From Candidatus Cloacimonadota bacterium (lineage in GTDB: Bacteria; Cloacimonadota; Cloacimonadia; Cloacimonadales; TCS61), in assembly GCA_023137125.1 (NCBI GenBank), contig JAGLPW010000012.1:1-30303 (forward strand): 30,303 bases of DNA. Direction: 5' to 3'. Each line of letters starts with the position of its first letter. Position 1 is the first letter of the stretch. Shown one piece after another: positions 1,845 to 30,303 of this stretch. The notes under the pieces were generated by a model. The model searched no databases. It was given only the letters and a program-made list of their open reading frames with translations, and had not been told where the DNA came from. The position numbers and the translations under genes were made by a program.

Positions 1845-3245
1845 ATGGAACATTTAAGAATTGGAATCGTAGGAAATATCGGAGTTGGAAAGTCTACATT
1901 AGTAGATGCAGCAAGTAAAAAACCCTTTAGTGAAATATTGCTTTCAACAATTCCCAATAAAATTGGGGATGAAAAAGTTTATGCCTTTCAAGAAAAATTT
2001 AATCCTAAAGTTTTAGATGCATTCTATGAAGACCCTATAGGAAATGCATTCATGGCACAGATCGAATTCTTCAATGGTAGATTAGACAGGCAGCGACAGA
2101 TAGAAAATAGGAAGGGAATTGTTTTAGAAGATAGAACTTTAGCTGAAGATTATCATATTTTCGGTATGGCGCAAAAGATCATGGGGAACATGACAGAAGA
2201 AGAATTCCTGGCTTATCAGCGTAATTATGATCTGATGACTCAAGAGATAACGTTGCCGGACCTTATCGTTTACTTAAAAGCAGATGTTCCTGTTCTATTA
2301 GAAAGGATCAAAGAACGTGGGAGAAAAAGTGAAGCAGGAATTCCAAGAGAATATCTTGAACAATTGAATCAGCTTTACGACCAATTTGTTAATCGCCACG
2401 TTACTTGCCCCGTGCTTGTTATAGACGCAAATGTGGATACTCCAATTGATAAATATATAGAAACGACGATCAATAAAATTGCTGAAAAAATTAGATCTCT
2501 TGATTTGCGTGTAACAACTCCGGGGATCAGTAAATGGGTAACTTTACCAGAAACAGCCGCAACTCTTAAGGCAATAGATGCAGAAACAAAATTGGAAAAG
2601 TTCTTACTAGAAAATCCAAGACTTATCTCTGTAGCAGGAAATGTAGGTTTGGGTAAATCAACTTTAACGGCGATCATGCAACGGAGCTTGAAGATAAATG
2701 GATTATATGAAAATCCTGAAGAAAATCCGCTTCTGGAGAAATTTCTTAAAGATAAGAAAACCTATTGTTACGATCTTCAGCTTCACTTTTTAAATATGCG
2801 AAAAGAGCTTCAAGTAAAGGGAACCAGTGGAAAAGAGAGTTATGTATTAGATAGATCGTTGCCGGAAGATCTATTGGTTTTTTGCTATCAATTTCATAAA
2901 GATGGGTTTTTGAATCGCGATGAACTTGATCTGCTAACTGCAAAATTTAAAACAGTATGTAATGAAATTCCTTCATCTGATCTTTTAATAGTATTAAAAG
3001 GCAGAACTGATCTTGCTTGGAGCCGAATCCAACAACGTGGAAGAGAGATGGAGATGGAAGGTGGTTGGAGCAGAAGTGATATTGATGCATTGAACGGATG
3101 GTATAGAACTTATGCCAATGATGTTTGCCGATTTGGATATCATAAAGGTAGAATAATTGAGATAAATGTTGAGAAGATAGATTTTACGAACCGTATTCAT
3201 GTGGGATATATTTTTGAGATCATTTACAATGCACTCTTAAACTAG
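1845..3245 (+). CDS. Fused tandem deoxynucleoside kinase (two complete dNK domains)
   Basis: Two P-loops (GNIGVGKST near residue 10, GNVGLGKST near residue 266). Each is followed by the dNK-type (E/D)R(T/S) motif (LEDRTLAEDYHIF; LDRSLPEDLLVF) and an Arg-rich lid (RIKERGRKSE; RIQQRGREMEMEG). Confidence 0.8.
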   Translation: MEHLRIGIVGNIGVGKSTLVDAASKKPFSEILLSTIPNKIGDEKVYAFQEKFNPKVLDAFYEDPIGNAFMAQIEFFNGRLDRQRQIENRKGIVLEDRTLAEDYHIFGMAQKIMGNMTEEEFLAYQRNYDLMTQEITLPDLIVYLKADVPVLLERIKERGRKSEAGIPREYLEQLNQLYDQFVNRHVTCPVLVIDANVDTPIDKYIETTINKIAEKIRSLDLRVTTPGISKWVTLPETAATLKAIDAETKLEKFLLENPRLISVAGNVGLGKSTLTAIMQRSLKINGLYENPEENPLLEKFLKDKKTYCYDLQLHFLNMRKELQVKGTSGKESYVLDRSLPEDLLVFCYQFHKDGFLNRDELDLLTAKFKTVCNEIPSSDLLIVLKGRTDLAWSRIQQRGREMEMEGGWSRSDIDALNGWYRTYANDVCRFGYHKGRIIEINVEKIDFTNRIHVGYIFEIIYNALLN

Positions 3246-3254
3246 GAGATTCAA

Positions 3255-4034
3255 ATGAAAAAATCAATATTTTTTCTGGTTATTTTAATATTTGTTAGCT
3301 CAACATTTGCAGAAGATATCGGATTAATGCGAAAATCAATTATTATGTCAACTCTGTGGCAGACAACATCAGCCGAATATAAAGCTCTTGCCTATCAGGC
3401 TTATAATATTGCCAGATTGCGTTTGGATGAAGATCTTAAAATTAAGCGAACACAAAAAAGAGCAATAATTGTAGATGCAGATGAAACAGTTATAGATAAT
3501 TCTGCTTTCCAAGTAAGAATGATAGTAGATGATGCGCAATATTACGGGGATTTTGATAATTGGGTGAAAAGTGCAGAAGGTAAGGCAATACCTGGCTCAT
3601 TGGATTTTCTTAATTATGCTCATGAGAATGGCTGTGATATATATTATATTTCTAATAGAAAGTTACATCATATGGAAGGAACCCTTAAAAACCTTAAGAT
3701 CTTGGGTTTCCCGCAAGCCGAAGTATCTCACATCCTTCTAAAAAATGATACTTCCAATAAGGGGATCAGAAGAGATCAGGTGGCAGAAGATCATTTTATT
3801 GTTATGCTTATTGGAGATAATTTAATTGATTTCGAAGATGTTTTTCGTCAAAAAAATATTGAAGAAAGATTCTCATCAGTAGAGAAATTTAAAGATGAAT
3901 TTGGAAAGAGATTCATCATTCTTCCAAATCCTATGTATGGTGAATGGGAAAAAACTCTTTATGGCGGAACCAGACAAATTCCGGAGAAAGAAAAAGAAAA
4001 AAAATTGTGGGAACATTTAAATAATAATAAATAA
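3255..4034 (+). CDS. Secreted HAD-superfamily acid phosphatase / 5'-nucleotidase, e(P4)/class C-like
   Basis: N-terminal signal peptide (MKKSIFFLVILIFVSSTFA). HAD motif I is IVDADETVIDNS and the late acidic motif is GDNLIDF. Overall length and the W..TSAEY.AL..QAYN segment are typical of the e(P4) family. No lipobox Cys, so probably soluble periplasmic. Confidence 0.7.
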   Translation: MKKSIFFLVILIFVSSTFAEDIGLMRKSIIMSTLWQTTSAEYKALAYQAYNIARLRLDEDLKIKRTQKRAIIVDADETVIDNSAFQVRMIVDDAQYYGDFDNWVKSAEGKAIPGSLDFLNYAHENGCDIYYISNRKLHHMEGTLKNLKILGFPQAEVSHILLKNDTSNKGIRRDQVAEDHFIVMLIGDNLIDFEDVFRQKNIEERFSSVEKFKDEFGKRFIILPNPMYGEWEKTLYGGTRQIPEKEKEKKLWEHLNNNK

Positions 4035-4223: not shown

Positions 4224-7037
4224 ATGAAAAAAATCGGTTTGATTATTATTCTTACAGTTTTGTTGATCCTGCCAGTTTATGCACAAGTTGGAAAAATTGC
4301 CGGGCGGGTTACTATCGAGGACAGTGGACAACCACTTGCTAATGCTGCAGTAATATTAGTTGATGCAGAACAAGGTACTTATACAAAAGGTAATGGTACT
4401 TTTACATTAACAGATGTTCCTGTTGGTATCGTTGAAGTTCAATTTCGTTATATGGGTTACGGAACCAAAACCCTTGAAGTTGAAGTTATTGAAAATGAAA
4501 CCGCAATTATTAATGTTAAGCTTGTTGTTGAATCGATTGGGATTGAAGGAATAAAGATCGTTTCTGATCGAGCTAAAGAAAGACAAACTCCTGTTGCTTT
4601 TACAGATATGGATAAAGAAGAGATGGAATCTAAACTTGGATCTAGAGATATTCCATTAGCATTAATTACTACACCTAGTGTTTATGCTACTAATCAAGGT
4701 GGCGGAGCTGGTGATGCCAGAGTTAATGTTCGAGGTTTTGACCAACGTAACGTTGCTATTATGATCAATGGTGTACCTGTTAATGATATGGAAAACGGCT
4801 GGGTATATTGGTCAAACTGGGATGGAGTTGGTGATGCAACTTCCTCAATTCAGATGCAGAGAGGTCTTAGTGCTGTTAACCTTGCTACACCATCTATTGG
4901 TGGAACTATGAACATCATTACTGATCCTACTGCTATGGAATCAGGTACAAAATTTAAACAAGAATTTGGTACTGGTGGTTTCTTAAAATCTACCGTTATG
5001 GCAGGTACAGGTCTTATTGATAATAAATTTGCCATTAGCGCTGTAGGTGTAAGAAAAACTGGTGAAGGTCTCATTGATAAAACATGGACTGATTCTTGGG
5101 CATACTATCTTGCCACAGGTTGGAATGTGAGTTCTAACAACAAACTTGAACTATACGTTGTTGGAGCTCCTCAAAGACACGGTCAGAATCTTTACAAACA
5201 AAATATTGCAACATATGATCAAGAATATGCTGATGACCTGGATGATTATTATTCAAATGTAGATACTGCTTATGTTAAATTCCCAGAGCAAGGTTATGAT
5301 TTTAATCAGAACTGGAGTCCTGTAAGCAATTATTATGATGGAAAGCAATTTTGGAATGGAGAAGAGCATGATCGTCATGATGAAAATTTCATTAATGAGA
5401 GAGAAAACTTCTATCATAAACCACAGGTTAACTTGAACTGGTATACTAAACTTAACGAAGATTTCAATATTTATTCAATTCTTTATTATTCTGGTGGTGA
5501 AGGTGGTGGAACAGGCACTTATGGTTCTATCTTCCGTCGTGATGCTAATGGTGAACTCGGTGATGACGATTACAAATTCTATTATGGACCATCGCCATGG
5601 GCTTGGGATTGGGATGAAACTATCGCAATGAATTCAGGTCCTGCTGGTGACTACTGGGTTGATAAAGACAGTCTTTACAAAGAAGACGGAGAGGCTTTAG
5701 GAATATTACGTAATAGCCGTAACAATCAATGGACTATTGGCGCAATTTCAAAAGCATACTTTACAATCAATGAAAATTTCACAACATCTGTAGGTATTGA
5801 TTGGAGAACTGCTACAATAGATCACTTCAGAGAAGTAAGAGATTTGCTTGGTGGAGATTATTACGATCCACGTTCTGATGAAGATAACGATTTAAGTGAT
5901 TTCTGGACCATTGAAGAAGACTTTAAAAGAGAACTCGGTGATAAAATTGATTACTACAATACTAATTCTGTAGATTGGATAGGTGGATATTGGCAAGGTG
6001 AATATTCATTAAATGCTCTAACTGCTTATCTTATGGGTGGTTATTCCACAATCAAATATTCTTATGAAGATCATTTTTCAACTGCTGATACACTTGCTAA
6101 TGGAGAGCCCGATATCGACAGTGGTGAATTAACTACTGAGACTGATATGTTAGGTGGTTATCAAGTAAAAGGTGGATCCAGCTTTATAATTAATGACTAT
6201 TTAGATATCTTTGGAAACGTCGGTATGGTAAGTAAGTGCCCAATATTTGATGAAGTTATAAATGACTGGACTGGTGAAAAATTCGATAATCCAAAAAATG
6301 AAGAATTCCTTGCTTTTGAAGCAGGAATAAATTTCAAAGGATTGGATGGAAAATTGGCAACAAAAGCTAATTTCTATTTCACAGATAGAAAGAACGAATC
6401 ACAAAGCTTTGAGCATGATACACTAGAAGGAGATGAGATTAAGATCTTTGTAAGTGGTCTTGATTCAAGACATCTTGGTTTTGAGTTGGAAGCTAGCTAT
6501 ATGCCTTTATATCTTCTAAGATTTGATGCATCATTTGCTAAAGGTGACTGGAAATACTTAAATAATGTTGAGGATACTCCATATGATGTTCCTGGTGGTG
6601 GAATTGAAACTATTGATATATATGTTAAAGATATTAAAGTTGGTGATGCACCACAAACACAATTATCATTTGGAACATCAATTTTTCCACTTGAAGGAAT
6701 GAAAGCTCAACTTATAGTACAGCACTATCGTGATCATTATTCTGCTTTCAATGCATTTAGTAGAAATGATCCGGATGATACAACTCAAAGTTGGAAAATT
6801 CCGGATTACACTAAGCTGAATTTCCACTTGAATTATATACTTCCTGTGAAAGTTAATGGTTTAGGTGTTTCAGTATTTGCTCACATGTTTAATCTCCTTG
6901 ATACGACTTTTATTCAAGATGCAACAGATAATAGTGAATACAACAGTTGGGGTGATAAAGAGCATAATGCCAATAATGCAGAAGTTTACTTAGGCATGCC
7001 ACGAACATTTAATGCTGGAGTATCAGTTACTTTCTAA
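4224..7037 (+). CDS. TonB-dependent outer-membrane receptor with N-terminal carboxypeptidase-regulatory-like domain
   Basis: Signal peptide, then a CarboxypepD_reg-like segment (GRVTIEDSGQPLANAAVILVD...GTFTLTDVPVG). Plug motifs (RVNVRGFDQRNVAIMINGVPVNDMENG) follow, then a long Gly/Tyr/Asp-rich barrel ending in aromatic F (GVSVTF). AGGGGGA RBS. Confidence 0.85.
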   Translation: MKKIGLIIILTVLLILPVYAQVGKIAGRVTIEDSGQPLANAAVILVDAEQGTYTKGNGTFTLTDVPVGIVEVQFRYMGYGTKTLEVEVIENETAIINVKLVVESIGIEGIKIVSDRAKERQTPVAFTDMDKEEMESKLGSRDIPLALITTPSVYATNQGGGAGDARVNVRGFDQRNVAIMINGVPVNDMENGWVYWSNWDGVGDATSSIQMQRGLSAVNLATPSIGGTMNIITDPTAMESGTKFKQEFGTGGFLKSTVMAGTGLIDNKFAISAVGVRKTGEGLIDKTWTDSWAYYLATGWNVSSNNKLELYVVGAPQRHGQNLYKQNIATYDQEYADDLDDYYSNVDTAYVKFPEQGYDFNQNWSPVSNYYDGKQFWNGEEHDRHDENFINERENFYHKPQVNLNWYTKLNEDFNIYSILYYSGGEGGGTGTYGSIFRRDANGELGDDDYKFYYGPSPWAWDWDETIAMNSGPAGDYWVDKDSLYKEDGEALGILRNSRNNQWTIGAISKAYFTINENFTTSVGIDWRTATIDHFREVRDLLGGDYYDPRSDEDNDLSDFWTIEEDFKRELGDKIDYYNTNSVDWIGGYWQGEYSLNALTAYLMGGYSTIKYSYEDHFSTADTLANGEPDIDSGELTTETDMLGGYQVKGGSSFIINDYLDIFGNVGMVSKCPIFDEVINDWTGEKFDNPKNEEFLAFEAGINFKGLDGKLATKANFYFTDRKNESQSFEHDTLEGDEIKIFVSGLDSRHLGFELEASYMPLYLLRFDASFAKGDWKYLNNVEDTPYDVPGGGIETIDIYVKDIKVGDAPQTQLSFGTSIFPLEGMKAQLIVQHYRDHYSAFNAFSRNDPDDTTQSWKIPDYTKLNFHLNYILPVKVNGLGVSVFAHMFNLLDTTFIQDATDNSEYNSWGDKEHNANNAEVYLGMPRTFNAGVSVTF

Positions 7038-20429: not shown

Positions 20430-21374
20430 TTATCTTTTCTTATTTTCTTTTTTCCTGTGTTTTAGCCAATACTTAATTGTAACTCGTCTCCATTTGCTTC
20501 TTATTTTATAAAAATCCTGCCAGTAAATTTCTTTAAATCCATTTGATGCTTTTTCAAATAGTTTATCTTTAACTTTGATCGTATATCTATTAGGACCTTC
20601 TGTAAGTTTACCAAATGATATTGCAAATTGAGGGCAATGATGCATACAACGTAAACAATGTAAACAAGCGAAATCATCGACTATTTTTATATTATCATTC
20701 ATCTTTATTAGATTACTTTCAGGACAATTTTTTGCACACAATCCACAAACATTACATTTTTCTCGGTCAATTTCCAATTTGGGATATTTTGTTCGCTCTA
20801 TATCTTTTACGATCTTCAATCTGAGAGAATCTAAGAAATTACCACGATGTTTTATTCTGAAATCTTTGTTTTGATATTTAAAAGAATTGTCTATGATTTC
20901 ATTGGTAAATTGATCAAGTTTATCAGTTATATTATCCTCGAAAAACATTACAGAACTATATTCATAACTATCAGAAGATTTCATCGAAGCAATTCCATTT
21001 GAAGGAGATTTAAAACTTTCTTTTGCAATTAATCGAAATGCCATTTTTTCTAATTTTTGTGCGAAATTATGTAAACTATCTGCTTCAAACCTTGTATATG
21101 AGCAGTATAAGAAAAATGGAGTAACTTCCTTTTTTCCTTTGAATATTGGAAATATATTTTCCATTATATGGGGATATGTAAATTTATAAACAGGAAAGCC
21201 AATTCCAACGATTTTGTTTTTAAGATCGAGCTTTTTTATTTTATCTAAAGATTCGATAGAAATGAGATCAACTTTGTGATGATCTTTCTCTAAACGCTTT
21301 TGTATCTCTTCGCTAATTAATTTTGTATTTCCGGTTCCGGAAAAATATAATAAAACAAATTCCATAAATTTCAA
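20430..21374 (-). CDS. Flavodoxin-like domain fused to 2x[4Fe-4S] ferredoxin domain (EFR1-like architecture)
   Basis: N-terminal LLYFSGTGNTKLISEEI (flavodoxin phosphate loop). C-terminal CNVCGLCAKNCP and CLHCLRCMHHCP. Same architecture as 27459..28274. Confidence 0.8.
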   Translation of the reverse strand: MKFMEFVLLYFSGTGNTKLISEEIQKRLEKDHHKVDLISIESLDKIKKLDLKNKIVGIGFPVYKFTYPHIMENIFPIFKGKKEVTPFFLYCSYTRFEADSLHNFAQKLEKMAFRLIAKESFKSPSNGIASMKSSDSYEYSSVMFFEDNITDKLDQFTNEIIDNSFKYQNKDFRIKHRGNFLDSLRLKIVKDIERTKYPKLEIDREKCNVCGLCAKNCPESNLIKMNDNIKIVDDFACLHCLRCMHHCPQFAISFGKLTEGPNRYTIKVKDKLFEKASNGFKEIYWQDFYKIRSKWRRVTIKYWLKHRKKENKKR

Positions 21375-21397
21375 AATTCCTTTAATAGTTCATTTAT

Positions 21398-21904
21398 TTA
21401 TTGGTTAATGTTATTGGAAGAACTCTCTACGATCTTACCTGTTGATTTATCGATGATCTCGTAGGAAATTGGAAAAGGATCGGATCTTCTTTTCATAAAC
21501 TTAATTGCATAAGATCTAGCATAATTCTTCGCCATTTCTACAGTTTCCCATTCATATTTACCAGAAAATGTTCTTTCTTCCTTATTAACCATAAACTGTT
21601 TTGTACAAAAACCAGGAAGACCAGAGAAGAATGGGATTGTTAATTTCGTTCGTTTAATAATAATTTCGGGGGAGATTTTAGGAGAATGAAATATTATCTT
21701 AAAAATTGCATTTCCAGATTTTGGTTCCCCGCTTTTTGATAAAATATCAATTTCAAGGAAAATTCTATTTTTATTCGAATCTTTTAATAGAATTTCCTTC
21801 CCAATATTTTTCCTTGGAAATTGAATTCTTCTCATTGTTTTTAAATGTGAATATCGCATAATAGAATATAATGGATTGTACTTTATCACATTCATTTTTT
21901 TCAC
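21398..21904 (-). CDS. Hypothetical protein; C-terminal half resembles a YdhR/ABM-type alpha+beta barrel
   Basis: The ORF sits between tetR (6-nt gap) and the flavodoxin-ferredoxin gene (23-nt gap). PGFCTKQFMVN....FSGKYEWETVEMAKNYARSY is reminiscent of the YdhR pattern (GL..K.W....G.Y.W.....A..Y). Weak assignment. Confidence 0.4.
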   Translation of the reverse strand: MKKMNVIKYNPLYSIMRYSHLKTMRRIQFPRKNIGKEILLKDSNKNRIFLEIDILSKSGEPKSGNAIFKIIFHSPKISPEIIIKRTKLTIPFFSGLPGFCTKQFMVNKEERTFSGKYEWETVEMAKNYARSYAIKFMKRRSDPFPISYEIIDKSTGKIVESSSNNINQ

Positions 21905-21910
21905 CTATTC

Positions 21911-22531
21911 TTATTCTCTCTTTTGTTGTAGTGCGTTGTGAACGAATTTCTTGATAAAATTTTCTTGTTCATCAAAGAAATGCTGAATTTCTTCTTGAGA
22001 GAATTGTGTTATCTCCATTATCAATGGCTTTGCAATAAAAGGAAAAATGCACATTGAAATAATGTTTATGAGCAAATGATTGGGATTGATTTTTTTTATC
22101 GTTCCTTTTTCCATTTCTAAATGCAATTCTTCAAAAATTTCATCAAAGAATTTCACTTTCATCGAATTAGTTTCCATATTCTTTTGGATGAAAGCCAGAT
22201 TATTTTCAATTTCATTCAAGATGAATTTTATGTTTTGTGTATTTGTTTTTATAAAATCTAAATATTTTTCAATTATCACATCTATCTTCTCTATAATGGG
22301 CATATTAGAATTTACAACTTTGTCGAATGAGATAAATAAATTCTTGAAACTATTTAACAAGACTACTTCAAAGAGTTCTTGTTTGGAACTGAAATAGTAA
22401 TGCAGTGCAGCTTTATTTACATTTGCGAGATTTGCAATTTCCTGCATTCGAGCACCATTAAACCCCTTATTATAGAATATTTCTGTCGCTACTGTAAGAA
22501 TTTTGTCTTTTGTTTTCAGCTTTTCTCCCAT
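21911..22531 (-). CDS. TetR/AcrR family transcriptional regulator
   Basis: N-terminal HTH ILTVATEIFYNKGFNGARMQEIANLANVNKAALHYYFSSKQELFEVV. AAAGGAGAA RBS. Confidence 0.9.
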   Translation of the reverse strand: MGEKLKTKDKILTVATEIFYNKGFNGARMQEIANLANVNKAALHYYFSSKQELFEVVLLNSFKNLFISFDKVVNSNMPIIEKIDVIIEKYLDFIKTNTQNIKFILNEIENNLAFIQKNMETNSMKVKFFDEIFEELHLEMEKGTIKKINPNHLLINIISMCIFPFIAKPLIMEITQFSQEEIQHFFDEQENFIKKFVHNALQQKRE

Positions 22532-22546
22532 TATAAGTTCTCCTTT

Positions 22547-22561
22547 TTAACCATTTGGTTA
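22547..22561. promoter_or_regulatory. Candidate TetR operator O1 (inverted repeat TTAACCA-tt-TGGTTA)
   Basis: 7-bp arms with a 2-nt spacer, 16 nt upstream of the tetR ATG and just upstream of its RBS. A near-identical copy lies 52 nt away. Confidence 0.55.
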
Positions 22562-22598
22562 GATTTCTTATTGTAGTGATATTCTGTCAAATAATATT

Positions 22599-22628
22599 TT
22601 AACCATTTGGTTAAATCGATTGGTTAAA
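22599..22628. promoter_or_regulatory. Candidate TetR operator O2 (TTAACCA-tt-TGGTTAA) plus an extra TTGGTTAAA half-site
   Basis: Full palindrome at 22599-22614 and a further half-site at 22620-22628. TTGACA and TACAAT hexamers (tetR sense strand) lie between O1 and O2. Confidence 0.5.
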
Positions 22629-22685
22629 TTTAGGAACGAAGAGTTAAGTCTGTTTGAATTCTTGTTTCCAAAACAAAATCAACTC

Positions 22686-22745
22686 CTAAACATCTTCTAA
22701 TAATTTCTTTAATGGTTTTGTCATCTGCGAACTCATCTGATTATT
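22686..22745 (-). pseudogene. 3'-terminal remnant (19 codons + stop) of a paralogue of the 23723..25105 gene
   Basis: The minus strand reads NNQMSSQMTKPLKKLLEDV*, against NNQMSSQMVKPLKKLLEKI* at the end of the 23723..25105 gene. The 24 nt at 22722-22745 are identical to 23759-23782. The remainder differs mostly at synonymous positions. An in-frame TGA sits immediately upstream of the remnant. Confidence 0.65.
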
Positions 22746-22948
22746 TCATGAACCGGAGTACTCTTTTTTTACCATAAATCCTCGCAAATATACTGATATT
22801 ACATTGCGAAGATTTTTTATATCGCTCTTTTTGGCATAATATTTATTTTGTTGACATTCAAATATCAAAATAACGATTGTATTCAACGTAGAATAAATAG
22901 ATCAGGAATAATTCATGACGATGTTATTGAGTGAAGATATAAGATTAT

Positions 22949-22971
22949 TATACTGCGAGTTTCGCAGTATA
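22949..22971. repeat. Perfect inverted repeat, 10-bp arms (tatactgcga / tcgcagtata), 3-nt spacer
   Basis: Read directly from the sequence. It ends 8 nt before the GTTAGCA heptamer at 22979 and about 38 nt upstream of the SRPBCC ATG. Confidence 0.5.
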
Positions 22972-22979
22972 TTACGATG

Positions 22980-23683
22980 TTAGCACTCCCATACCAAAAG
23001 AGGTTAAAATGAAACGAAAATCTTACACATATCAAGTCCAATCTACCTTAGAAGCTTCCTGTGAAGAGGTATGGACACAGGTATTTCAAATGGAAGGGGT
23101 GAATGCTGAACTTTCACCGTGGATGAAAATGACTTATCCATTAGAGATGAATCGATTCGATCCTGAAATGACTCCTATTGGAAAGCTTGTTTTTCGTAGC
23201 ACCATATTAGTATTTGGGCTAATCCCAATAGATTACTATAATTTGTCTTTTGTCAAAATTGATTCTCCCACTCAATTTCATGAGCAATCAAGCTCAATAG
23301 GATTCAAAAAATGGACGCATATCCGTACACTGGAAACCGTAGAGAGAGGTTGCAGATTGACTGACAAGGTGGAATATGAACCCCGTATCCCCATATTAGG
23401 AGGTGCGTTACATCCTGTTTTTTTGGGATTATTTAAACATCGTCAAAAATACTTGAGAAAAAAGTTTGGTTATTTGAACGAACCAGGCGATACTGAAATT
23501 TGAATGTTCTATCGTAAAAAATGTTAAACAATATATTCTCTTCCGAACTTATAGGTGCTAACAAAAGGATGAACGCGGACCCAAAAAGGCTTGGCTTCGA
23601 GTAAATCTGTCATAAGGGTCAAGCATTCGCTATTTTAAAGGGTACCACAACCTATCGGCGTTTTTGGGCCGGTTATCCATACG
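22980..23683 (+). mobile_element. Candidate integron-type gene cassette (SRPBCC ORF + attC-like site)
   Basis: The heptamer GTTAGCA at 22979-22985 is the exact reverse complement of TGCTAAC (23556-23562) at the left end of the downstream folded repeat. That repeat ends in GTTATCC (23683-23689). One compact ORF starts 29 nt after the putative G|TT boundary. It is the only plus-strand gene in 17.3-30.3 kb and is visibly GC-richer. Confidence 0.35.
23009..23503 (+). CDS. SRPBCC (START/Bet v 1-like) ligand-binding superfamily protein
   Basis: 164 aa. The N-terminal pattern V.STLEAS.EEVW..V....GVN.EL.PWMKM, the central W.H.R.LE....GC.L.D.V.Y.P segment and the C-terminal F.HRQKYLRKKFG resemble SRPBCC/cyclase-dehydrase-like proteins. 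AAGAGG RBS. Confidence 0.6.
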   Translation: MKRKSYTYQVQSTLEASCEEVWTQVFQMEGVNAELSPWMKMTYPLEMNRFDPEMTPIGKLVFRSTILVFGLIPIDYYNLSFVKIDSPTQFHEQSSSIGFKKWTHIRTLETVERGCRLTDKVEYEPRIPILGGALHPVFLGLFKHRQKYLRKKFGYLNEPGDTEI

Positions 23684-23689
23684 TTATCC
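23556..23689 (+). repeat. attC-like imperfect inverted repeat (about 134 nt)
   Basis: Outer boxes gctaac (23557-62) and gttatc (23683-88) pair at 5 of 6 positions. A 4-nt largely unpaired spacer follows. The stem 23567-23587 / 23661-23678 has 18 Watson-Crick pairs interrupted by three single-nt bulges (G23571, G23575, A23579). All three bulges are on the left arm and each is 3 bp from the next. The central 66 nt are variable. Confidence 0.4.
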
Positions 23690-23722
23690 TACAAATATCA
23701 TCCTATTCGCTACAATATAACC

Positions 23723-25105
23723 TTAAATCTTCTCCAACAACTTCTTCAGCGGTTTCACCATCTGCGAACTCATCTGATTATTGTAAATCTCCTTTCGTAT
23801 CTTTGGGATTTTGATGAGTTGATATAAAATAAAATTCACCATTTTTATTTTAAATTTTGTATTGTAAGATTTAAAAATCCCCAGCTTCTTAAAAGCTTTA
23901 TAATCAGCAACAAAAGGAAAGCGAAGCGGTCCGTATATATCATCGCGGAAAACTTTCATTCCACCCACACCGAGGAAATTATCTTCTTTCTTCAGTTTTT
24001 GATCTGCATAGCGGATTGTCTTTTGGGCAGTTGCGGAAATGATATTATCCAATTCTGCTGAATCTTTGTATTCATCAGTAACAAAATCAACCAGGTTTCC
24101 TCTTTGAATTTGCGCCCACGCCTCGAATATCTGCCTGATATTCGGAATTTGTTTCAGTGGTCCAGAAACAAGATAGACAAGTTGTTTACCGGTAAATACG
24201 GGAACATGATTGTTATAAAAGCTGCGATCTATGAACATCTTCCAACGAGCAGAAAAAAACCTGTCTTTGATCTTAGCAGCATAAACAATAATATCTGCTG
24301 TTTTAAGTTTGGAATCAAAGAATTTATTGTACTCATCTTTCCCTTCGTAAATGCAGGTATTGTCGTATCCGCAATGAATACAACCCAGGCATCCACCTTT
24401 AATATCTAGATCATGAATATTATATTCTTCGATTTCCTCACTGAAATTTGCTTTGAATTGTGCTGTCATTTTTGCAAGATTCCCTTCTGGATCAGTGCTG
24501 TCTGTTAGAAGTAATATCTTTTTTCCTCTTGTGGAAATCTTGTTTATAATTTCTTCTGGTTTGTATTGGAAATTAGAATATTTAAGAGGAGAATAATAAC
24601 GAATAACGGGCAGATCATTCTCGATTGCATTGAAGAAATTTTCTGCAAACAATAGAAGCTCATTCTGTCCTTCTTGGTTGGAAAGACTGCTCATACCGGC
24701 AGAGATAAATTCAGCATATTTCATGTTCAGATCTTCGCAGATCGCTCTCATATAATTGTGGGCAGTATGATCGTAAAAGTGAATGGATGTAGAAAGAACT
24801 GCTGTATATTTATTTTGGAATACACTTTGAACATTTCTTTCAGAAATCAGTTCGATAAATCGTTTGTATTGAGCCGCAACGAGAAACACATAAAGCGGAA
24901 ACGCCCAGATCACGGCATCTGCCGACTTAACTTTCTCTATAATGCCATTAAAAACTTTTTCATCTTTTTCTATTCGCTTGATTTGCTGCGAGATATTTTC
25001 AAATTCATATTCGTGATCTGGAAAGTTCTTTTGAATAAATTTTACGTAATGTAAAGTTACGCTTTCTTTACCTTTCGGGCTACCGTTTAAAACTATTATT
25101 TTCAT
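23723..25105 (-). CDS. Tandem FMN-reductase/flavodoxin-fold protein; second domain carries an iron-sulfur-flavoprotein (Isf)-type Cys motif
   Basis: Domain 1 is MKIIVLNGSPKGKESVT...AVIWAFPLYVF. Domain 2 is KKILLLTDS...GGCLGCIHCGYDNTCIY (CX2CX2CX5C)...ADIIVYAAKI. I place the start at 25105 (AGGAGA RBS 8 nt upstream, 11 nt after the upstream stop) rather than at the track's 25171, which would overlap the upstream gene. Confidence 0.8.
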   Translation of the reverse strand: MKIIVLNGSPKGKESVTLHYVKFIQKNFPDHEYEFENISQQIKRIEKDEKVFNGIIEKVKSADAVIWAFPLYVFLVAAQYKRFIELISERNVQSVFQNKYTAVLSTSIHFYDHTAHNYMRAICEDLNMKYAEFISAGMSSLSNQEGQNELLLFAENFFNAIENDLPVIRYYSPLKYSNFQYKPEEIINKISTRGKKILLLTDSTDPEGNLAKMTAQFKANFSEEIEEYNIHDLDIKGGCLGCIHCGYDNTCIYEGKDEYNKFFDSKLKTADIIVYAAKIKDRFFSARWKMFIDRSFYNNHVPVFTGKQLVYLVSGPLKQIPNIRQIFEAWAQIQRGNLVDFVTDEYKDSAELDNIISATAQKTIRYADQKLKKEDNFLGVGGMKVFRDDIYGPLRFPFVADYKAFKKLGIFKSYNTKFKIKMVNFILYQLIKIPKIRKEIYNNQMSSQMVKPLKKLLEKI

Positions 25106-25116
25106 TTTGTCTTCTC

Positions 25117-26862
25117 CTAAAATTTCGGTGCTTCCTTCAAATAAGATTTCTTTCCATCCAGAGTCTTCCAAAAATTATCTGCCTGACTTTGGAAAGTCTC
25201 TTTAGAAAAACCTATGTTAGTGATAGCCATCATCAGATCGACGTCAATCTTTCCTTCATTAACAATTTGTTTTCCAGCTGTTTCACAAATCTCAGCAATT
25301 TTATCTCTTCTCTTCTTATAAACCGGATATACAATAGATTCAGCGGCGGGAAGAAAAAATTCTCCCATCAACGAAGTTTTTTCCATATGACTACTGAAAC
25401 AGCGGAAAGAGTATTTCAAACCATCAAAATTATGTTCCACTTCCGGAAATCCTGATGCGCTGAAAACTACAAAACCTTGTCCTTTATCTTCTTCGTAGCG
25501 GTGCGGATGCTGGGTTTGACCATTTTTTATAAGCATATAGGGTTTCATATTCGGTAAAAGTCTGTCTAAGAAATTCTTCATAATTCCCGTTACATTGAAT
25601 ATGTATAATGGAGAAGAATAAATTACCAGATCTGCTTCCCGAAGTTTGATTCTTAATTCAGTCATATCATCTTTATAAATGCATTCTCCTGGAGTTTGCG
25701 TCCAACATTGATAACAACCGGAACAGGGATTTATCTTTTTGTTCTTTAGTTTAATGAATTCAATTTCTGCTCCAGCTTCCTGCAAACCTTTGCAAAAGTT
25801 ATTAACCATAAAAGTGGTTTTACTCAATTTTTCGCTTCGTGGTCCACCATCTAAAACAATCACTTTTTTTATTCTTTTAGGTTCAAATGTTTTATACTCG
25901 AGAGTTGTATTTACAGGTTGTTTTATTTCCGGTGCAGGTTGATCATTTTCAGGTGAAAAGAGAGAACCGAGATTCAGCAAAATGGAAGCATCACCTTCCA
26001 CAGAATATTCTTTATTCATAAAAGCAGCATCACCGGAAACTTCATTATTAGAAATTTTCAACCATAATTCCGAATTTGAAATAATTGTTGTTTTAGGATT
26101 TTCAGCAATTCCTTCCGTGTAAGTGCACTCTTTATTTTTTATTTGAAGATAACCGTTTGTCGGCTCTTTTCCCGAAAGTTTAAATTGAATCAATTCATCT
26201 AAACCTTCTGCTTTTTTGGCATTCAAACCATACGGCATTGCCTGAAAAAGTTTCTTGATTGAAGTGAAGTGTAATTGCTCTCCTTTCACTTTTTGCATCA
26301 AGATTTTCGGAAGTTTCAATGTTAACGGAATTCCGATAATTACCTGCAATAAAATCGGAACAACAGTTGAAGCAATCATTTGAATTCCGCTATCGCTTGA
26401 ATATTGTACTTTGGTCAAAACAATTGCAACAGCAAAAAGAAATACCCAAATATAATTGATAATTAGATTTATCTTTAAGAATTGCTGACCTTCTGTAATT
26501 GCTTTCGGGTAATCTTTTACTGAAAACTCAAAAGTAAAAGGTTTCATCTTGAAGAGTGGTGGGAAAGCAGCGACAATGAACAATCCGAGATACAATCCCA
26601 CGATGATATTATGGAGATAAATTTCTCCCAAAAGTGGGAATACTAAAACCGAAATTCCACCGAGAACTGCAACTCCGGTGAGTCCAAACATAAAGTAAGT
26701 TGAGATCTTCATTTTCATTGCCAACAGCAAATTCAATATCAAAATAATATTGATTATCAGCACAAACGGTTTCATCGCTTCCAAGCTGTGCATACTTGCT
26801 TCCGATAAAACATTTAAAGCAATTACACCGGCGAACGGTAAGTTTTTGATTATAGCTTTCAC
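25117..26862 (-). CDS. Fusion protein: about 6-TM membrane domain + SCP2 lipid-binding domain + Isf-like FMN-reductase-fold domain
   Basis: About six hydrophobic helices in residues 1-190. SCP2 pattern ELIQFKLSG....GYLQIKN.ECTYTEG......TIISNSELWLKI.....SGDAAFMNKEYSVEGDASILLNLGSLF. Then KKVIVLDGGPRSEKLSKT...INPCSGCYQCWTQTPGECIY (CX2CX2CX7C)...ADLVIYSSPLY. GTG start overlaps the upstream stop (GTGA). Confidence 0.75.
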   Translation of the reverse strand: MKAIIKNLPFAGVIALNVLSEASMHSLEAMKPFVLIINIILILNLLLAMKMKISTYFMFGLTGVAVLGGISVLVFPLLGEIYLHNIIVGLYLGLFIVAAFPPLFKMKPFTFEFSVKDYPKAITEGQQFLKINLIINYIWVFLFAVAIVLTKVQYSSDSGIQMIASTVVPILLQVIIGIPLTLKLPKILMQKVKGEQLHFTSIKKLFQAMPYGLNAKKAEGLDELIQFKLSGKEPTNGYLQIKNKECTYTEGIAENPKTTIISNSELWLKISNNEVSGDAAFMNKEYSVEGDASILLNLGSLFSPENDQPAPEIKQPVNTTLEYKTFEPKRIKKVIVLDGGPRSEKLSKTTFMVNNFCKGLQEAGAEIEFIKLKNKKINPCSGCYQCWTQTPGECIYKDDMTELRIKLREADLVIYSSPLYIFNVTGIMKNFLDRLLPNMKPYMLIKNGQTQHPHRYEEDKGQGFVVFSASGFPEVEHNFDGLKYSFRCFSSHMEKTSLMGEFFLPAAESIVYPVYKKRRDKIAEICETAGKQIVNEGKIDVDLMMAITNIGFSKETFQSQADNFWKTLDGKKSYLKEAPKF

Positions 26863-27443
26863 TCTTTAGTTCCAACCTTGTAAGCTTTTTCTAACCATTG
26901 CTTTCTCTGTTTCTTGGAAGACGTTCTAACAGAACCGAAATAATGTTTCCCTACAAATTTCATTCCAGTAAAAGTGATAATATCTTTCATCATTTTTCCA
27001 CCCGGATCACCGACAATTAAATTCATATAAAATGGCGGGGAATCCATTGTAGAAAGAACCCTTGTCGTTCTGCCGGTTAGTAGTTTATCCCATTTGGGGA
27101 TTGATCCTTTTGATTCAAGATACTTAAATGCAAATCCGGGTTCCCAGATTCTTTCAATAAATAGTTTTAAAATTGCCGGTGGAGTTGCCCACCATGTAGG
27201 ATATGTAAAAGTTAGATGATCTGCCCAAGAAATAAGTTCTTGAGCATTTTGCAGATCTGAGGTTAATTCAGGGCTTGGATTGTGTCCATTTTTTAGAAAT
27301 CCCTCTAAATCCAATTTTCTTAAATCTATAGCTTTAATTTCATTTCCCGATCTCTTTGCTCCTGTAATATACTTGTATGTTAGTGCATTACAAAAACTAT
27401 CTTCTCTGGGATGAGCTTTGATTACTAATATTTTCTTCATCAA
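26859..27443 (-). CDS. NAD(P)H dehydrogenase (quinone)-type flavoprotein (Flavodoxin_2 / NQO-MdaB-KefF-like)
   Basis: MMKKILVIKAHPREDSFCNAL at the N-terminus and ADHLTFTYPTWWATPPAILKLFIERIW. Both are hallmark segments of the Flavodoxin_2 family. AGGAGA RBS. Confidence 0.85.
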   Translation of the reverse strand: MMKKILVIKAHPREDSFCNALTYKYITGAKRSGNEIKAIDLRKLDLEGFLKNGHNPSPELTSDLQNAQELISWADHLTFTYPTWWATPPAILKLFIERIWEPGFAFKYLESKGSIPKWDKLLTGRTTRVLSTMDSPPFYMNLIVGDPGGKMMKDIITFTGMKFVGKHYFGSVRTSSKKQRKQWLEKAYKVGTKE

Positions 27444-27458
27444 ATTCTCCTGATATTT

Positions 27459-28274
27459 TTAGTTTAAAATATTTCTTTTTAATTCATTATAGAAGGAAAT
27501 GTTCAATCTTCTGTTATCTTTCATTTTATCGGAAAAAATTATGGCGTTCTGTGGACAGTTATGAATACATTTAAGACAGAACTCACAATTATGCGGATCG
27601 AAAGCAGGAATTATTTCTCTACTTTCCCAACAATTTCTAGGACAGTTATTTACGCAAATATTGCAATTAATACATCTCTCTTTGATAATATGCATCCTGC
27701 TTTTGTATTTCTTATAAGATAACTCTCCAAAATACAAAAGGATATTATTAAGCGGAACATACCATTTATAAGCTGGAATTCTCAATTTAGCTTTAGAAGA
27801 ATTTAAGGTTTTGGATATTACATTAACTGCTTTCAGGATCTTTGCATTGATCTTTTTCTCATATTGGAAAATTCTTGAGCTTAATTTTGGAAACAGTAAT
27901 GCTCCATCGCTTGCCGGTCCGATGAACTGAAAATAATTAATAGTTACTACGTTTTTTTTATCTAGTTTTTTAATAAGAATACGCAGAGTATTTCCAGAGT
28001 ATAAAGCACAAGTTGTGAACACAAGCGCTTTTACTTGTTTTTGGAAAAACGGCATTCTATCCACAAATTCTTTCATTGATAGTGAAGGTTGGCAACTATA
28101 AGTAGGGAAGCCAAAGATCAGAAGATCATAATTCTCTATTTGTTGATAATCGAAAGAGCTGCTGATCTGAGAGATGTCAATTTCACAAGTTTCAGATAAT
28201 CTCTCAGATAAAACTTCTGAGATCAGTTTTGTGCTTCCAGAACCTGAATGATACAGAACAAGGACTTTTTTCAT
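27459..28274 (-). CDS. Flavodoxin-like domain fused to 2x[4Fe-4S] ferredoxin domain (EFR1-like architecture)
   Basis: KKVLVLYHSGSGSTKLISEVL at the N-terminus. CINCNICVNNCP and CEFCLKCIHNCP at the C-terminus. Paralogous in architecture to 20430..21374. Confidence 0.8.
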   Translation of the reverse strand: MKKVLVLYHSGSGSTKLISEVLSERLSETCEIDISQISSSFDYQQIENYDLLIFGFPTYSCQPSLSMKEFVDRMPFFQKQVKALVFTTCALYSGNTLRILIKKLDKKNVVTINYFQFIGPASDGALLFPKLSSRIFQYEKKINAKILKAVNVISKTLNSSKAKLRIPAYKWYVPLNNILLYFGELSYKKYKSRMHIIKERCINCNICVNNCPRNCWESREIIPAFDPHNCEFCLKCIHNCPQNAIIFSDKMKDNRRLNISFYNELKRNILN

Positions 28275-28297
28275 AGCAATTTCCTGCTTTTACCTCA

Positions 28298-28723
28298 CTA
28301 ATACTTTAGTTTAATTTCAAGTATCATATCTTCTTTCACTTCAAATTTCGCTTTATCAAATTTCGGCGGACCGAATGTTCCAAAAACATTATTAGAAAAT
28401 GCATAACCTTCTTTTGGAATACCTAGGAAATTTCTATCCATTTTTACATTGGAGTTTTCATCATGATAAATTGCGATTGCATATACACCCTCCGGGATAT
28501 TTTCAAAAGTGTGTGTAATTGACTCTTGGTCTGCCTGAATAAATGCTCCAGCAATAACATCACCTTTTGGATAGCTTTCTTCACCCTGGAATAACCCGAT
28601 AGAAATTTCACCTTCCAAATTTGTAATATCTGTTATGGTAACCTTTATCAAATATCCTGCTTCCTGTGCAAAGCATAAACTTGCTAATACAATTAAAATG
28701 ATCATTAAGAATAACTTTTTCAT
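28298..28723 (-). CDS. Secreted DUF2141 family protein
   Basis: Signal peptide. GEISIGLF......YPKGD, YAIAIYHDENSNVKMDRNFLGIPKEGYAFSNN and GPPKFDKAKFEV fit the DUF2141 pattern. Confidence 0.7.
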   Translation of the reverse strand: MKKLFLMIILIVLASLCFAQEAGYLIKVTITDITNLEGEISIGLFQGEESYPKGDVIAGAFIQADQESITHTFENIPEGVYAIAIYHDENSNVKMDRNFLGIPKEGYAFSNNVFGTFGPPKFDKAKFEVKEDMILEIKLKY

Positions 28724-28724
28724 T

Positions 28725-29243
28725 TTAAATTTCTCCTTTTATTTGCTTTAAATAATTAGTGTACCAACCCAAAATAAATGAATAATAACCAATTCCAAAT
28801 TCTAAAGTGGCCATTTCATATTTATTACAATTTTCTCTCACTTGAGGCACATCCCCTAAGTTATGCATCGTCTCAATATGCATTTTTAATTCTGATAAGT
28901 AGTTTTCCAATATCTGAATTTTTTCATCTTTAGAAACATATGGAAAGAAAAACAATCGCAATAACATATCGTTTTTTACTTTAGAAACTCCAACTTTGCT
29001 GTTCAACCATTCTTTAAAGGCAGATCTACCAGATTCTGTAATTGTATAGATTTTGTGCAATCGTCCATTTGATACTTCTTCTTCAGTTGTCACAAGTCCA
29101 TTTCTCTCCAACTTTTTAAATGCTGGATTTATGCTGCCCTGGCTTGTACTGAAGAAGAACTTTGTACTAAGTTCCATTTTTTTTCTGATATCATATCCAG
29201 TATATGGTTTTTGCATTAACATTCCGAGTAGAATTTTTTCCAT
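28725..29243 (-). CDS. PadR family transcriptional regulator
   Basis: LLGMLMQKPYTGYDIRKKME....SQGSINPAFKKLERNGLVTTEEEVSNGRLHKIYTITESGRSAFKEWL is a classic PadR winged helix. AAGGAGA RBS. Confidence 0.9.
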   Translation of the reverse strand: MEKILLGMLMQKPYTGYDIRKKMELSTKFFFSTSQGSINPAFKKLERNGLVTTEEEVSNGRLHKIYTITESGRSAFKEWLNSKVGVSKVKNDMLLRLFFFPYVSKDEKIQILENYLSELKMHIETMHNLGDVPQVRENCNKYEMATLEFGIGYYSFILGWYTNYLKQIKGEI

Positions 29244-29253
29244 ATTATCTCCT

Positions 29254-30303
29254 TTAAAATTTTATTCCGAAACCAACACTTAGTGAATTTATTATTTCAA
29301 ATTCTTTAGCAAATATCATGTCGCTGCGATAGGTTACAAATGGGAGGAATCCAATACTGTTATCCGGTTCCCAGCCAAGGTTGGTAGAATATCCAATTAC
29401 ATTTTCTTCATCTTCTCCATAGCCAAAATACCCGATAGTTCCCATACTTGCGTTAAACCAGTTAAATGGTTTGGCTTCTAAAATTACTCCGATAGATGTA
29501 TATGGATTTTCAGTGTTGAAATATGTTACATCAAGACCCCATTTTTTATCTCCGGCGTTAAGTAAAAACCTGCCGCCAATATGTGCAACAGTTTCTCCAT
29601 TTGTTGTTAGAATTCCATAACCGAAATGCGGACGGAACATATAATTACTCTTTTTAGCAGAGTATTCTATTTCCTCTCTACCTTGAATTTCTTCAAGTTT
29701 ATAACCGTGTTTCCCTTTGCCGATCTCCTCTAAAATATTTATCTCTACTATTGGAGTTTGTTTGTTATCAATTGAAAGAGTCATATTGCTCAAGTCATAC
29801 ACATTTGACCAAACTGTGGATTTCTGCGATACTTTATTTAAGATATTATGAATATCTGCGATGGAATAATTTTCACTTTTTTGTAATTCCTCGCTGGCAA
29901 TATCAAACCTTGTAAATGAGGTTTTGCTATCTTGCTCCAACGAAGGATCGGTGAGAAAATGATTTGTGATTATTTGATTCTTTTTCTCATCACGAATGAC
30001 GATAATTTCCTTATTAAAATATTCGACAACTGCCGATTCACCAGATATATCCACGATTTTGTAATGAACAACCGGATTTCCCAGGAACATTCCGAACAGA
30101 TTGGAGTATTTGGAGAATATCTTAATTGCTTCATCCACAGTAGAAGCATTCTGCAAAATCACTTCTACCATTTCAAGACTTTTTCTCATCGGTTTGAAAA
30201 GTGAAAGTGGTGTTTTGGTGTTTGGAACAGCAGCAATGCCGATGAACAGGCCTTTGTTATTAACTCCTTCGTAGGGCATTGTTTCACTAATTATTTCCAC
30301 AAT
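29254..30303 (-). CDS. Ntn-hydrolase (choloylglycine hydrolase/linear amide C-N hydrolase-like) domain fused to a C-terminal 8-strand beta-barrel; N-terminus outside window
   Basis: The ORF is open to the window edge. YEGVNNKGLFIGIAAVP, QIITNHF and STVWSNVYDLSNMTLSI resemble CBAH/Ntn-hydrolase segments. The last about 130 aa show eight amphipathic beta-strand-like segments rich in G/Y/F, ending in SVGFGIKF (terminal Phe, outer-membrane barrel signature). Confidence 0.6.
   Translation of the reverse strand: MVEIISETMPYEGVNNKGLFIGIAAVPNTKTPLSLFKPMRKSLEMVEVILQNASTVDEAIKIFSKYSNLFGMFLGNPVVHYKIVDISGESAVVEYFNKEIIVIRDEKKNQIITNHFLTDPSLEQDSKTSFTRFDIASEELQKSENYSIADIHNILNKVSQKSTVWSNVYDLSNMTLSIDNKQTPIVEINILEEIGKGKHGYKLEEIQGREEIEYSAKKSNYMFRPHFGYGILTTNGETVAHIGGRFLLNAGDKKWGLDVTYFNTENPYTSIGVILEAKPFNWFNASMGTIGYFGYGEDEENVIGYSTNLGWEPDNSIGFLPFVTYRSDMIFAKEFEIINSLSVGFGIKF

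Follow-up and report, generated by a model that had tools for sequence, protein, structure and literature searches.

Gene content around the candidate cassette

The DNA analysed here (the window, 30,303 nt in all) comes from a chromosomal region, with the sdh operon (sdhCAB) on one side and alaS a few kb past the right end of the window. Proteins at least 90% identical to its SdhB, TonB-dependent receptor and deoxynucleoside kinase are found in Candidatus Cloacimonadota or Ca. Tenebribacter mawsonii, and the initial annotation, which had called the genome FCB-like, was right in this since proteins of such high identity are those of Cloacimonadota. An assignment to Marinimicrobia, suggested by a single protein name at 63% identity, was rejected on these grounds. 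Between a TetR-headed operon on the left and a flavodoxin-like / FMN-reductase cluster on the right, which extends up to a PadR-type regulator gene (28725-29243), lies an ORF on the plus strand followed by an attC-like site (Table 1). This ORF had been described as the only plus-strand gene between 17.3 and 30.3 kb, which holds in the sense that it is the only sizeable one not embedded in a minus-strand gene. Direct reading of 22700-24000 bore out the coordinates first proposed for both the ORF and the site and placed the boxes at 22979-22985 (GTTAGCA), 23556-23562 (TGCTAAC) and 23683-23689 (GTTATCC), with an additional copy of GTTATCC at 23672-23678. The layout is the usual architecture of a gene cassette, that is a short leader with a ribosome-binding site, a single ORF and then attC, here with 52 nt between the stop codon and TGCTAAC.

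Table 1. Features of the cassette locus and the three best attC-model matches (window positions unless a contig is named; R2, covariance model described in the text; L007 and L019, related contigs)
Feature	Position	Strand	Remarks
Relic, 3' end of a second flavodoxin-like gene, ...NNQMSSQMTKPLKKLLEDV and stop	22685..22843	-	blastx 44% over 52 aa; direct repeat
Near-perfect 13-bp hairpin, TATTATACTGCGA-GTT-TCGCAGTATATTA	22946..22974		4 nt left of the cassette junction
Left junction G|TTAGCA	22979..22985	+	perfect reverse complement of R'' TGCTAAC
Gene cassette proper, 704 bp	22980..23683	+	TTAGCAC... to ...ATACG; ends are homology breakpoints with L007 (left) and L019 (right)
Shine-Dalgarno-like AAGAGG	22998..23003	+	5 nt before the ATG; read directly, putative function
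ORF, 164 aa, DUF8410 (PF28469)	23009..23503	+	SRPBCC / Bet v 1-like helix-grip fold (predicted)
attC-like site, 134 nt	23556..23689	+	best R2 match in the window, plus strand only; stem seen in folds
R'' TGCTAAC	23556-62	+	followed by spacer AAAAG
L'' arm GAT(G)AAC(G)CGG(A)CCCAAAAA	from 23568	+	followed by the variable centre
L' arm	ends 23677	+	followed by spacer CATAC and R' GTTATCC (23683-89)
3' flank of flavodoxin-like gene, 45 nt	23684..23728		to stop codon plus one codon; 100% with L007
Flavodoxin-like NAD(P)H oxidoreductase gene	23723..25105	-	convergent with the cassette ORF; homologues 460 aa
R2 match, rank 1	window 23556-23689	+	13.7 bits, E 0.21; exact interval of the initial annotation
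R2 match, rank 2	L019 1846-1904	-	10.5 bits, E 1.5; ends at the GTTATCC breakpoint
R2 match, rank 3	L007 336-467	+	10.4 bits, E 1.6; ends at the GTTAGCA breakpoint

The assignment of the ORF to DUF8410 was taken from precomputed annotation (686 representatives at E <=0.001). A Pfam search of the ORF with a local copy gave no match, and a word-based homologue search with its protein found only the protein itself. Weak matches to Polyketide_cyc2 were present in 15 of 51 relatives, the AlphaFold2 model (pLDDT 96.5) has the beta-alpha-alpha-beta6-alpha topology of a helix-grip fold, and Foldseek matched it at E values of about 1e-6 to 1z94, 7wa9, Ara h 8, the CoxG-like 2ns9 and START 3put. The SRPBCC label first given to the ORF is borne out by all of these, and the cassette product is, by its predicted structure, a member of the SRPBCC superfamily with a helix-grip fold. 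An R2 search for attC near 15 distant DUF8410 loci gave no match, hence DUF8410 is not generally a cassette gene.

Base composition does not help to define the unit. The initial annotation had contrasted about 43% G+C in the ORF with about 15-30% in the neighbouring gene; the ORF actually has 37.6% and its neighbours 28-35% (28.5% for the TetR gene and 35.2% for the flavodoxin-like gene). The value is 38.4% for the cassette and 45.5% for the attC-like site. With 34.3% for the window and a range of 25.5-40.4% over its genes, the argument from G+C content fails.

On the right, the flavodoxin-like gene was called mechanically as a 482-aa ORF (23723-25171, minus strand) that starts at TTG and overlaps the upstream gene (25117-26862, minus strand); because homologues are about 460 aa long, translation probably begins at the ATG whose last base is 25105. 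On the left, the hairpin next to the cassette junction has no adjoining R''-like box, no R2 match and no counterpart in the related contigs L007, L019 and L051 described below; it may represent a truncated attC or belong to the target site. Further left, the relic is what remains, in decayed form, of about 50 codons from the end of a flavodoxin-like gene. Over its final 20 codons, which come after an in-frame stop, it matches 23724-23782 at 78% DNA identity, and it has a stop codon of its own. The presence of this relic points to an older duplication or rearrangement at the spot.

The attC-like site and its covariance model

An imperfect inverted repeat of about 134 nt, with an 18-bp stem and three one-sided bulges, had been noted downstream of the ORF, and both folding and model alignment confirmed it. 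The arms GGATGAACGCGGACCCAAAAA and TTTTTGGGCCGGTTATCC pair over 18 bp and the three single-base bulges all lie on the 5' (R''-side) arm. Spacers of about 4-5 nt (AAAA / ATAC between the stem and CTAAC / GTTAT, from the fold and the model alignment) separate the stem from the outer boxes. The geometry is the same in all 14 known attC sites that we extracted: the 7-nt R'' and a 5-nt spacer are followed by 3 bp, then by a bulge on the L'' arm and a long stem, and a second 5-nt spacer leads to R'. The R2 alignment puts every element in register, with the bulged G 3 bp past the spacer. Minimum-energy folds reproduce the attC stem, at an unexceptional fold energy (z of -1.0 for bottom-strand DNA, and of -1.4 and -2.2 for the two strands as RNA). 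A search of the whole window against Rfam at gathering thresholds gave no match.

The boundary heptamers GTTAGCA and TGCTAAC, first proposed as matching, are indeed complementary at 7 of 7 positions, so that a circularised cassette would restore a fully paired R box. GTTAGCA or its complement occurs five times in the window against 2.7 expected, which makes a copy at one prescribed position a rare event, with a chance of about 1e-4. We also considered an attC on the minus strand (R'' GGATAAC ... R' GTTAGCA) and rejected it, as the homology breakpoints described below fit the plus orientation only and R2 matches the plus strand only.

In several respects the site resembles known attC sites (59-base elements such as those of aadA1, dfrA12, IMP-1 and the VCR type). 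Like them it has an R'' ending in AAC and an R' beginning with GTT, and its R boxes are complementary once the cassette is circular. The spacers, about 5 nt long, are unpaired, the L'' arm has its extra base 3 bp away from the spacer, and the centre is variable, again as in known sites. The length of the site falls in the range of long ones such as those of IMP-1 (127 nt) and arr-3 (114 nt), and GTTAGCA is identical to R' at the dfrA12-gcuF junction of a class 1 array. Unlike the usual attC it is AT-rich and carries three bulges (top strand G, G, A) rather than two, and while the invariant AAC and GTT are kept, the outer positions of TGCTAAC and GTTATCC depart from the consensus RYYYAAC and GTTRRRY.

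For a quantitative comparison, we used a covariance model (R2) trained on 14 attC sites from class 1 plasmid arrays, namely those of aadA1, aadA2, psp, qacL, gcuF, estX, cmlA1, VIM, aac(6')-31, aac(6')-Ib4, IMP-1, arr-3, dfrA27 and dfrA12, with the candidate sites excluded. R2 was built on the R box, spacer and L box; the variable centre was N-masked and treated as an insert whose length was learnt, a design that follows the one published for IntegronFinder (PMC4889954). The model, trained on class 1 cassettes, serves as a surrogate for the IntegronFinder attc_4 model. An earlier model with a short fixed loop (R1) was dropped as it misses long attC sites, even IMP-1 and arr-3 of its own training set, and MAFFT on full-length attC sites misaligned their right ends. 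As a positive control, every attC of seven class 1 arrays was recovered by R2 at 30-72 bits, including one that had been held out.

When R2 was run with filters off on the window, L007 and L019 together (69 kb), the top match was exactly the interval proposed from the sequence, on the plus strand. Its 13.7 bits are marginal, as an E value of 0.21 in 69 kb would exceed 1 genome-wide; IntegronFinder keeps matches with E <1 (PMC4889954). The window holds no other match of 13 bits or more and, in all control DNA outside the cassette array L024 (see below), only the window site and its copies in contigs L001, L007 and L032 reach at least 13.7 bits. The sites ranked second and third, in L019 and upstream in L007, have noise-level scores (10.4-10.5 bits, with an unrelated match in L016 at 10.6) and count because of where they lie: a match of such strength ending on the prescribed base and strand is expected at about 1e-5 per site, and this occurred twice. 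AT-rich attC sites from the environment score close to noise when the model has been trained on class 1 cassettes, and they are probably undercounted.

Cassette junctions in related contigs

The contigs that encode exactly the same protein all come from one study, and of the eight that were retrieved all but one are collinear with the window. The exception, L007, is a single 1510-nt scaffold of low abundance from one sample. It matches the window over 22979-23728 only (750 nt, one mismatch), between unrelated flanks that have no match in the other fetched contigs, and it carries the same cassette in a second context. Homology begins exactly at G|TTAGCA: the left junction reads ...TATATTACGAT G|TTAGCACTCC in the window and ...AGCTACCTC G|TTAGCACTCC in L007. 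Upstream of this breakpoint L007 has a different gene and then an attC-like site of canonical geometry and 132 nt (336-467), ACCTAAC-ACCC-GCT(G)CTACGG...CCGCAG-AGC-TACCTC-GTTAGCA. Free-energy folding of L007 325-475 showed no attC, whereas the covariance model did.

The closest homologue of the upstream ORF of L007 is P0272 (54%), a cassette gene in L024 that lies between attC sites scoring 26.5 and 11.3 bits, and the gene that follows P0272 is in turn followed by an attC of 40.7 bits (E 4e-8). The position of P0272 inside an attC array indicates that the family of the L007 upstream gene is cassette-borne elsewhere, and L007 itself looks like an attC array. L024 (environmental contig, JGI 3300046484) is a genuine cassette array with attC sites at 42-97, 576-631 and 1513-1572; the last of these, which comes after an RNase_T/BRCT gene, is near-identical to a clinical aadA-type attC (GGCTAACAATTCATTCAAACCAACGCCGCTTCGCGGCGCGGCTTAATTTAGACGTTGCAC).

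On the right, L007 shares 45 nt past G|TTATCC (to 23728), one codon into the flavodoxin-like gene, and its breakpoint there has no GTT and no G|WT in the expected orientation. This overshoot could reflect a second rearrangement, imprecise excision or an assembly error, and as the contig is short and of low abundance an assembly error could underlie either of its junctions.

The right end of the cassette is marked by another contig. Relatives of the flavodoxin-like protein were found at 86% (L019), 81%, 77%, 75% and 72% (L051) identity; a contig scan with the same protein gave relatives of at most 49% identity, from other phyla only, and no orthologous loci. The orthologous flavodoxin-like gene is present in L019, as is the 45-nt flank 23684-23728, which has diverged there and differs by a 12-nt indel; the similarity extends up to ...TACAAATACCATCC / GTTATCC, where homology with the window is lost exactly at G|TTATCC (23683|23684). 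Past the breakpoint L019 has a different convergent gene (138 aa) and an attC-like hairpin of 59 nt that ends there; the stem of this hairpin has 9 bp and its R'' reads AAT rather than AAC. The 138-aa product (1941-2357, minus strand) is a membrane protein with an HEFGH motif, possibly a minimal metalloprotease, and has no Pfam match.

Both crossover points predicted in the initial annotation, 22979|22980 and 23683|23684, therefore turned out to be real breakpoints, the left one in L007 (G|TTAGCA) and the right one in L019 (G|TTATCC); what did not conform was the right end of L007 with its overshoot of 45 nt.

In L051 the site is unoccupied. Its MGMT protein is 90% identical to that of L019, and its MGMT and flavodoxin-like genes are 18 nt apart (6384-6401) with no gene between them. 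The L051 junction reads ...AAAGAACG|TTAAAAC (AACG|TTAAAAC). In window orientation the L051 spacer is ...CAAAGAACG|TTAAAACTC, and L019 on the MGMT side of its extra gene reads ...AAAGAAGTGTG|TTAGTATG. In these alignments three apparent states of one locus are seen, with junctions at G|TT: empty in L051, occupied by gene A in L019 and by the DUF8410 gene in the window. The empty site first predicted for relatives, ...tattacgatG|TTATCC, was not found; that of L051 matches the left flank of L019 and not that of the window. Indeed the window left flank differs from those of both L019 and L051, and no attC, attI or empty-site counterpart is recognisable in it. In the population of the window an empty site would read ...TATTACGATG joined to TTATCCTAC, and the junction of the circular cassette would read ...CCATACG|TTAGCACTCC.

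As for the wider arrangement, convergent flavodoxin-like and MGMT genes seem to be ancestral in the clade. L050 retains only a truncated MGMT relic (about 3560-3700), some 270 nt downstream. The window locus has lost MGMT altogether, and no relic of it was found in the left flank.

A probable lone attC cassette at a genomic G|TT site

We consider it probable that 22980-23683 is an integron-type gene cassette with a single attC and without an integrase (SALIN), placed at a genomic G|TT site. A lone attC cassette, perhaps at a secondary GTT site, had been the original suggestion, and it is supported by the L007 and L019 breakpoints as well as by the R2 ranking. The locus has one attC-associated CDS, no other att site or integrase nearby and housekeeping neighbours (sdhCAB, alaS). 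The window had been noted to lack an integrase; no tyrosine recombinase is present among its ORFs, and neither such a recombinase nor an integrase was found in the 9 kb examined beyond the right end of the window; the combination of intI, attI and Pc beside an array that characterises a complete integron is absent from the locus.

What the sequences show is the structure of the unit, its exact boundaries and its presence in a second context; an integrase, the direction of events and the expression of the cassette gene are inferred. The bottom strand of attC would fold into a hairpin with the R box, an unpaired spacer of about 5 nt and the L box with its extrahelical bases. Cleavage between G and TT of the R' box would be due to an integron integrase whose gene lies elsewhere or belonged to a past donor, and the partner of the circular cassette in the exchange would be either a different attC or an attG-like genomic G|TT located downstream of the flavodoxin-like gene.

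Experiments have shown that SALINs form when an integrase catalyses attC x attG insertion at GWT sites; excision at sites close by was reported as an occasional event, and SALINs have been reported in 2469 genomes across phyla (bioRxiv 10.1101/2022.09.11.507474). Like a SALIN, the window has one ORF and one attC with neither an integrase nor a second att site nearby, and in accordance with the GWT consensus of attG sites its junctions lie at G|TT, with an empty G|TT in the relative L051. A further likeness is a weak promoter-like match in the left flank (TTGAGT-16-TATACT, 22927-22954), which could drive the cassette ORF. The 45 nt of flanking chromosome carried by L007 resemble the reported ‘excision outside the insertion point’, with the difference that its right breakpoint lacks G|WT in the expected orientation. 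Unlike the experimental SALINs, the present one is known from sequence alone and its host phylum is Cloacimonadota. The system of PMC4889954 (2016) is closer to L007, where two attC-like sites 570 nt apart surround the cassette and no integrase occurs in 1.5 kb, a length too short to exclude a neighbouring one; the window differs in having one site only.

The main alternative is that the locus is simply a variable intergenic hotspot, in which the hairpin is a structured 3' end or bidirectional terminator, genes were swapped by illegitimate or homologous recombination and the G|TT junctions arose by chance. The weak fold z-scores, the marginal attC-model score and the lack of an integrase in the window or the 9 kb to its right would all be at home in such an account, as would the TTTTGTT that follows the stem on the minus strand, the neighbourhood of the flavodoxin-like gene, which is different in every relative examined, and the right breakpoint of L007, which is not at GTT. 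It leaves to coincidence, however, that two independent breakpoints fall to the base on the predicted G|TT points, that each breakpoint has one of the top three model matches beside it, on the correct strand, and that GTTAGCA and TGCTAAC are complementary at 7 of 7 positions in mirrored places. A terminator scan was negative here, the loop of about 80 nt is far beyond terminator norms, and the family of the L007 neighbour gene occurs in a true attC array. We find this explanation unlikely.

Two other explanations seem to us less probable still. The unit might be a non-autonomous element moved not by an integron integrase but by another hairpin-recognising system, for example an IS200/IS605-type HUH transposase. 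Such an element would account for a subterminal hairpin with neither terminal inverted repeats nor target-site duplication and for a unit found in two contexts; it fits poorly with a left end that has no hairpin, with ends that follow the integron consensus (AAC ... GTT, crossover at G|TT) and with a geometry of R box, spacer, L box and bulge that is specific to attC, and no HUH transposase was seen in any locus. Just as improbable, in our view, is that L007 is an assembly chimera, which would turn the evidence for mobility into an artefact and the cassette into a resident gene with a hairpin. That L007 is one 1510-nt scaffold from one sample, and that its right junction sits at a near-palindrome (CCTTAAAT|ATTTTAAGG), would be expected of a chimera. 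A k-mer chimera, on the other hand, needs a shared repeat, and none is present at the left junction of L007, which adjoins instead an attC-like site of canonical geometry; moreover L019 and L051, compared with each other, show gene insertion at G|TT independently of L007.

A lone attC is usually set aside as a possible false positive, since a single covariance-model match cannot be validated. Here, validation of our preferred reading as a SALIN comes from population variation in metagenomes: the same cassette in two contexts, a different cassette at the junction in a sister genome, and an empty site. The SALIN class is already known, and what the window adds is a new example, and one whose validation is unusually good by the standards of a lone attC, as each of the two crossover points is marked by a natural variant. 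It supports a natural spread of integron cassettes into ordinary chromosomal G|TT sites and extends this to an uncultured anaerobic phylum.

More speculatively, Cloacimonadota might host an active integron system, for which the G|TT beside the flavodoxin-like gene would be a natural attG-type hotspot; L051, L019 and the window would then be three of its states and L007 an array. We hold this only as a tentative idea. If it were true, the locus would document in the field the cassette-to-genome route that has up to now been demonstrated in E. coli. In the literature that we searched, no paper links integrons or attC with Cloacimonadota or Marinimicrobia.

Some further features surround the cassette. 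The palindrome TTTAACCATTTGGTTAAA, or a close variant of it, occurs three times at 22545-22629, in the 150 nt that precede the TetR-family gene (21911-22531, minus strand). These copies are probably TetR operators; as they read TAAC...GTTA they give spurious low-scoring matches to the attC model. Finally, 20430-30300 is unusually rich in paralogous flavodoxin-like / FMN-reductase and 4Fe-4S proteins (314, 482, 581, 194 and 271 aa), which are encoded to the left and to the right of the cassette, beside the genes for the TetR-type and PadR-type regulators; one of these paralogues carries a fused SCP2 domain and a membrane region at its N terminus.
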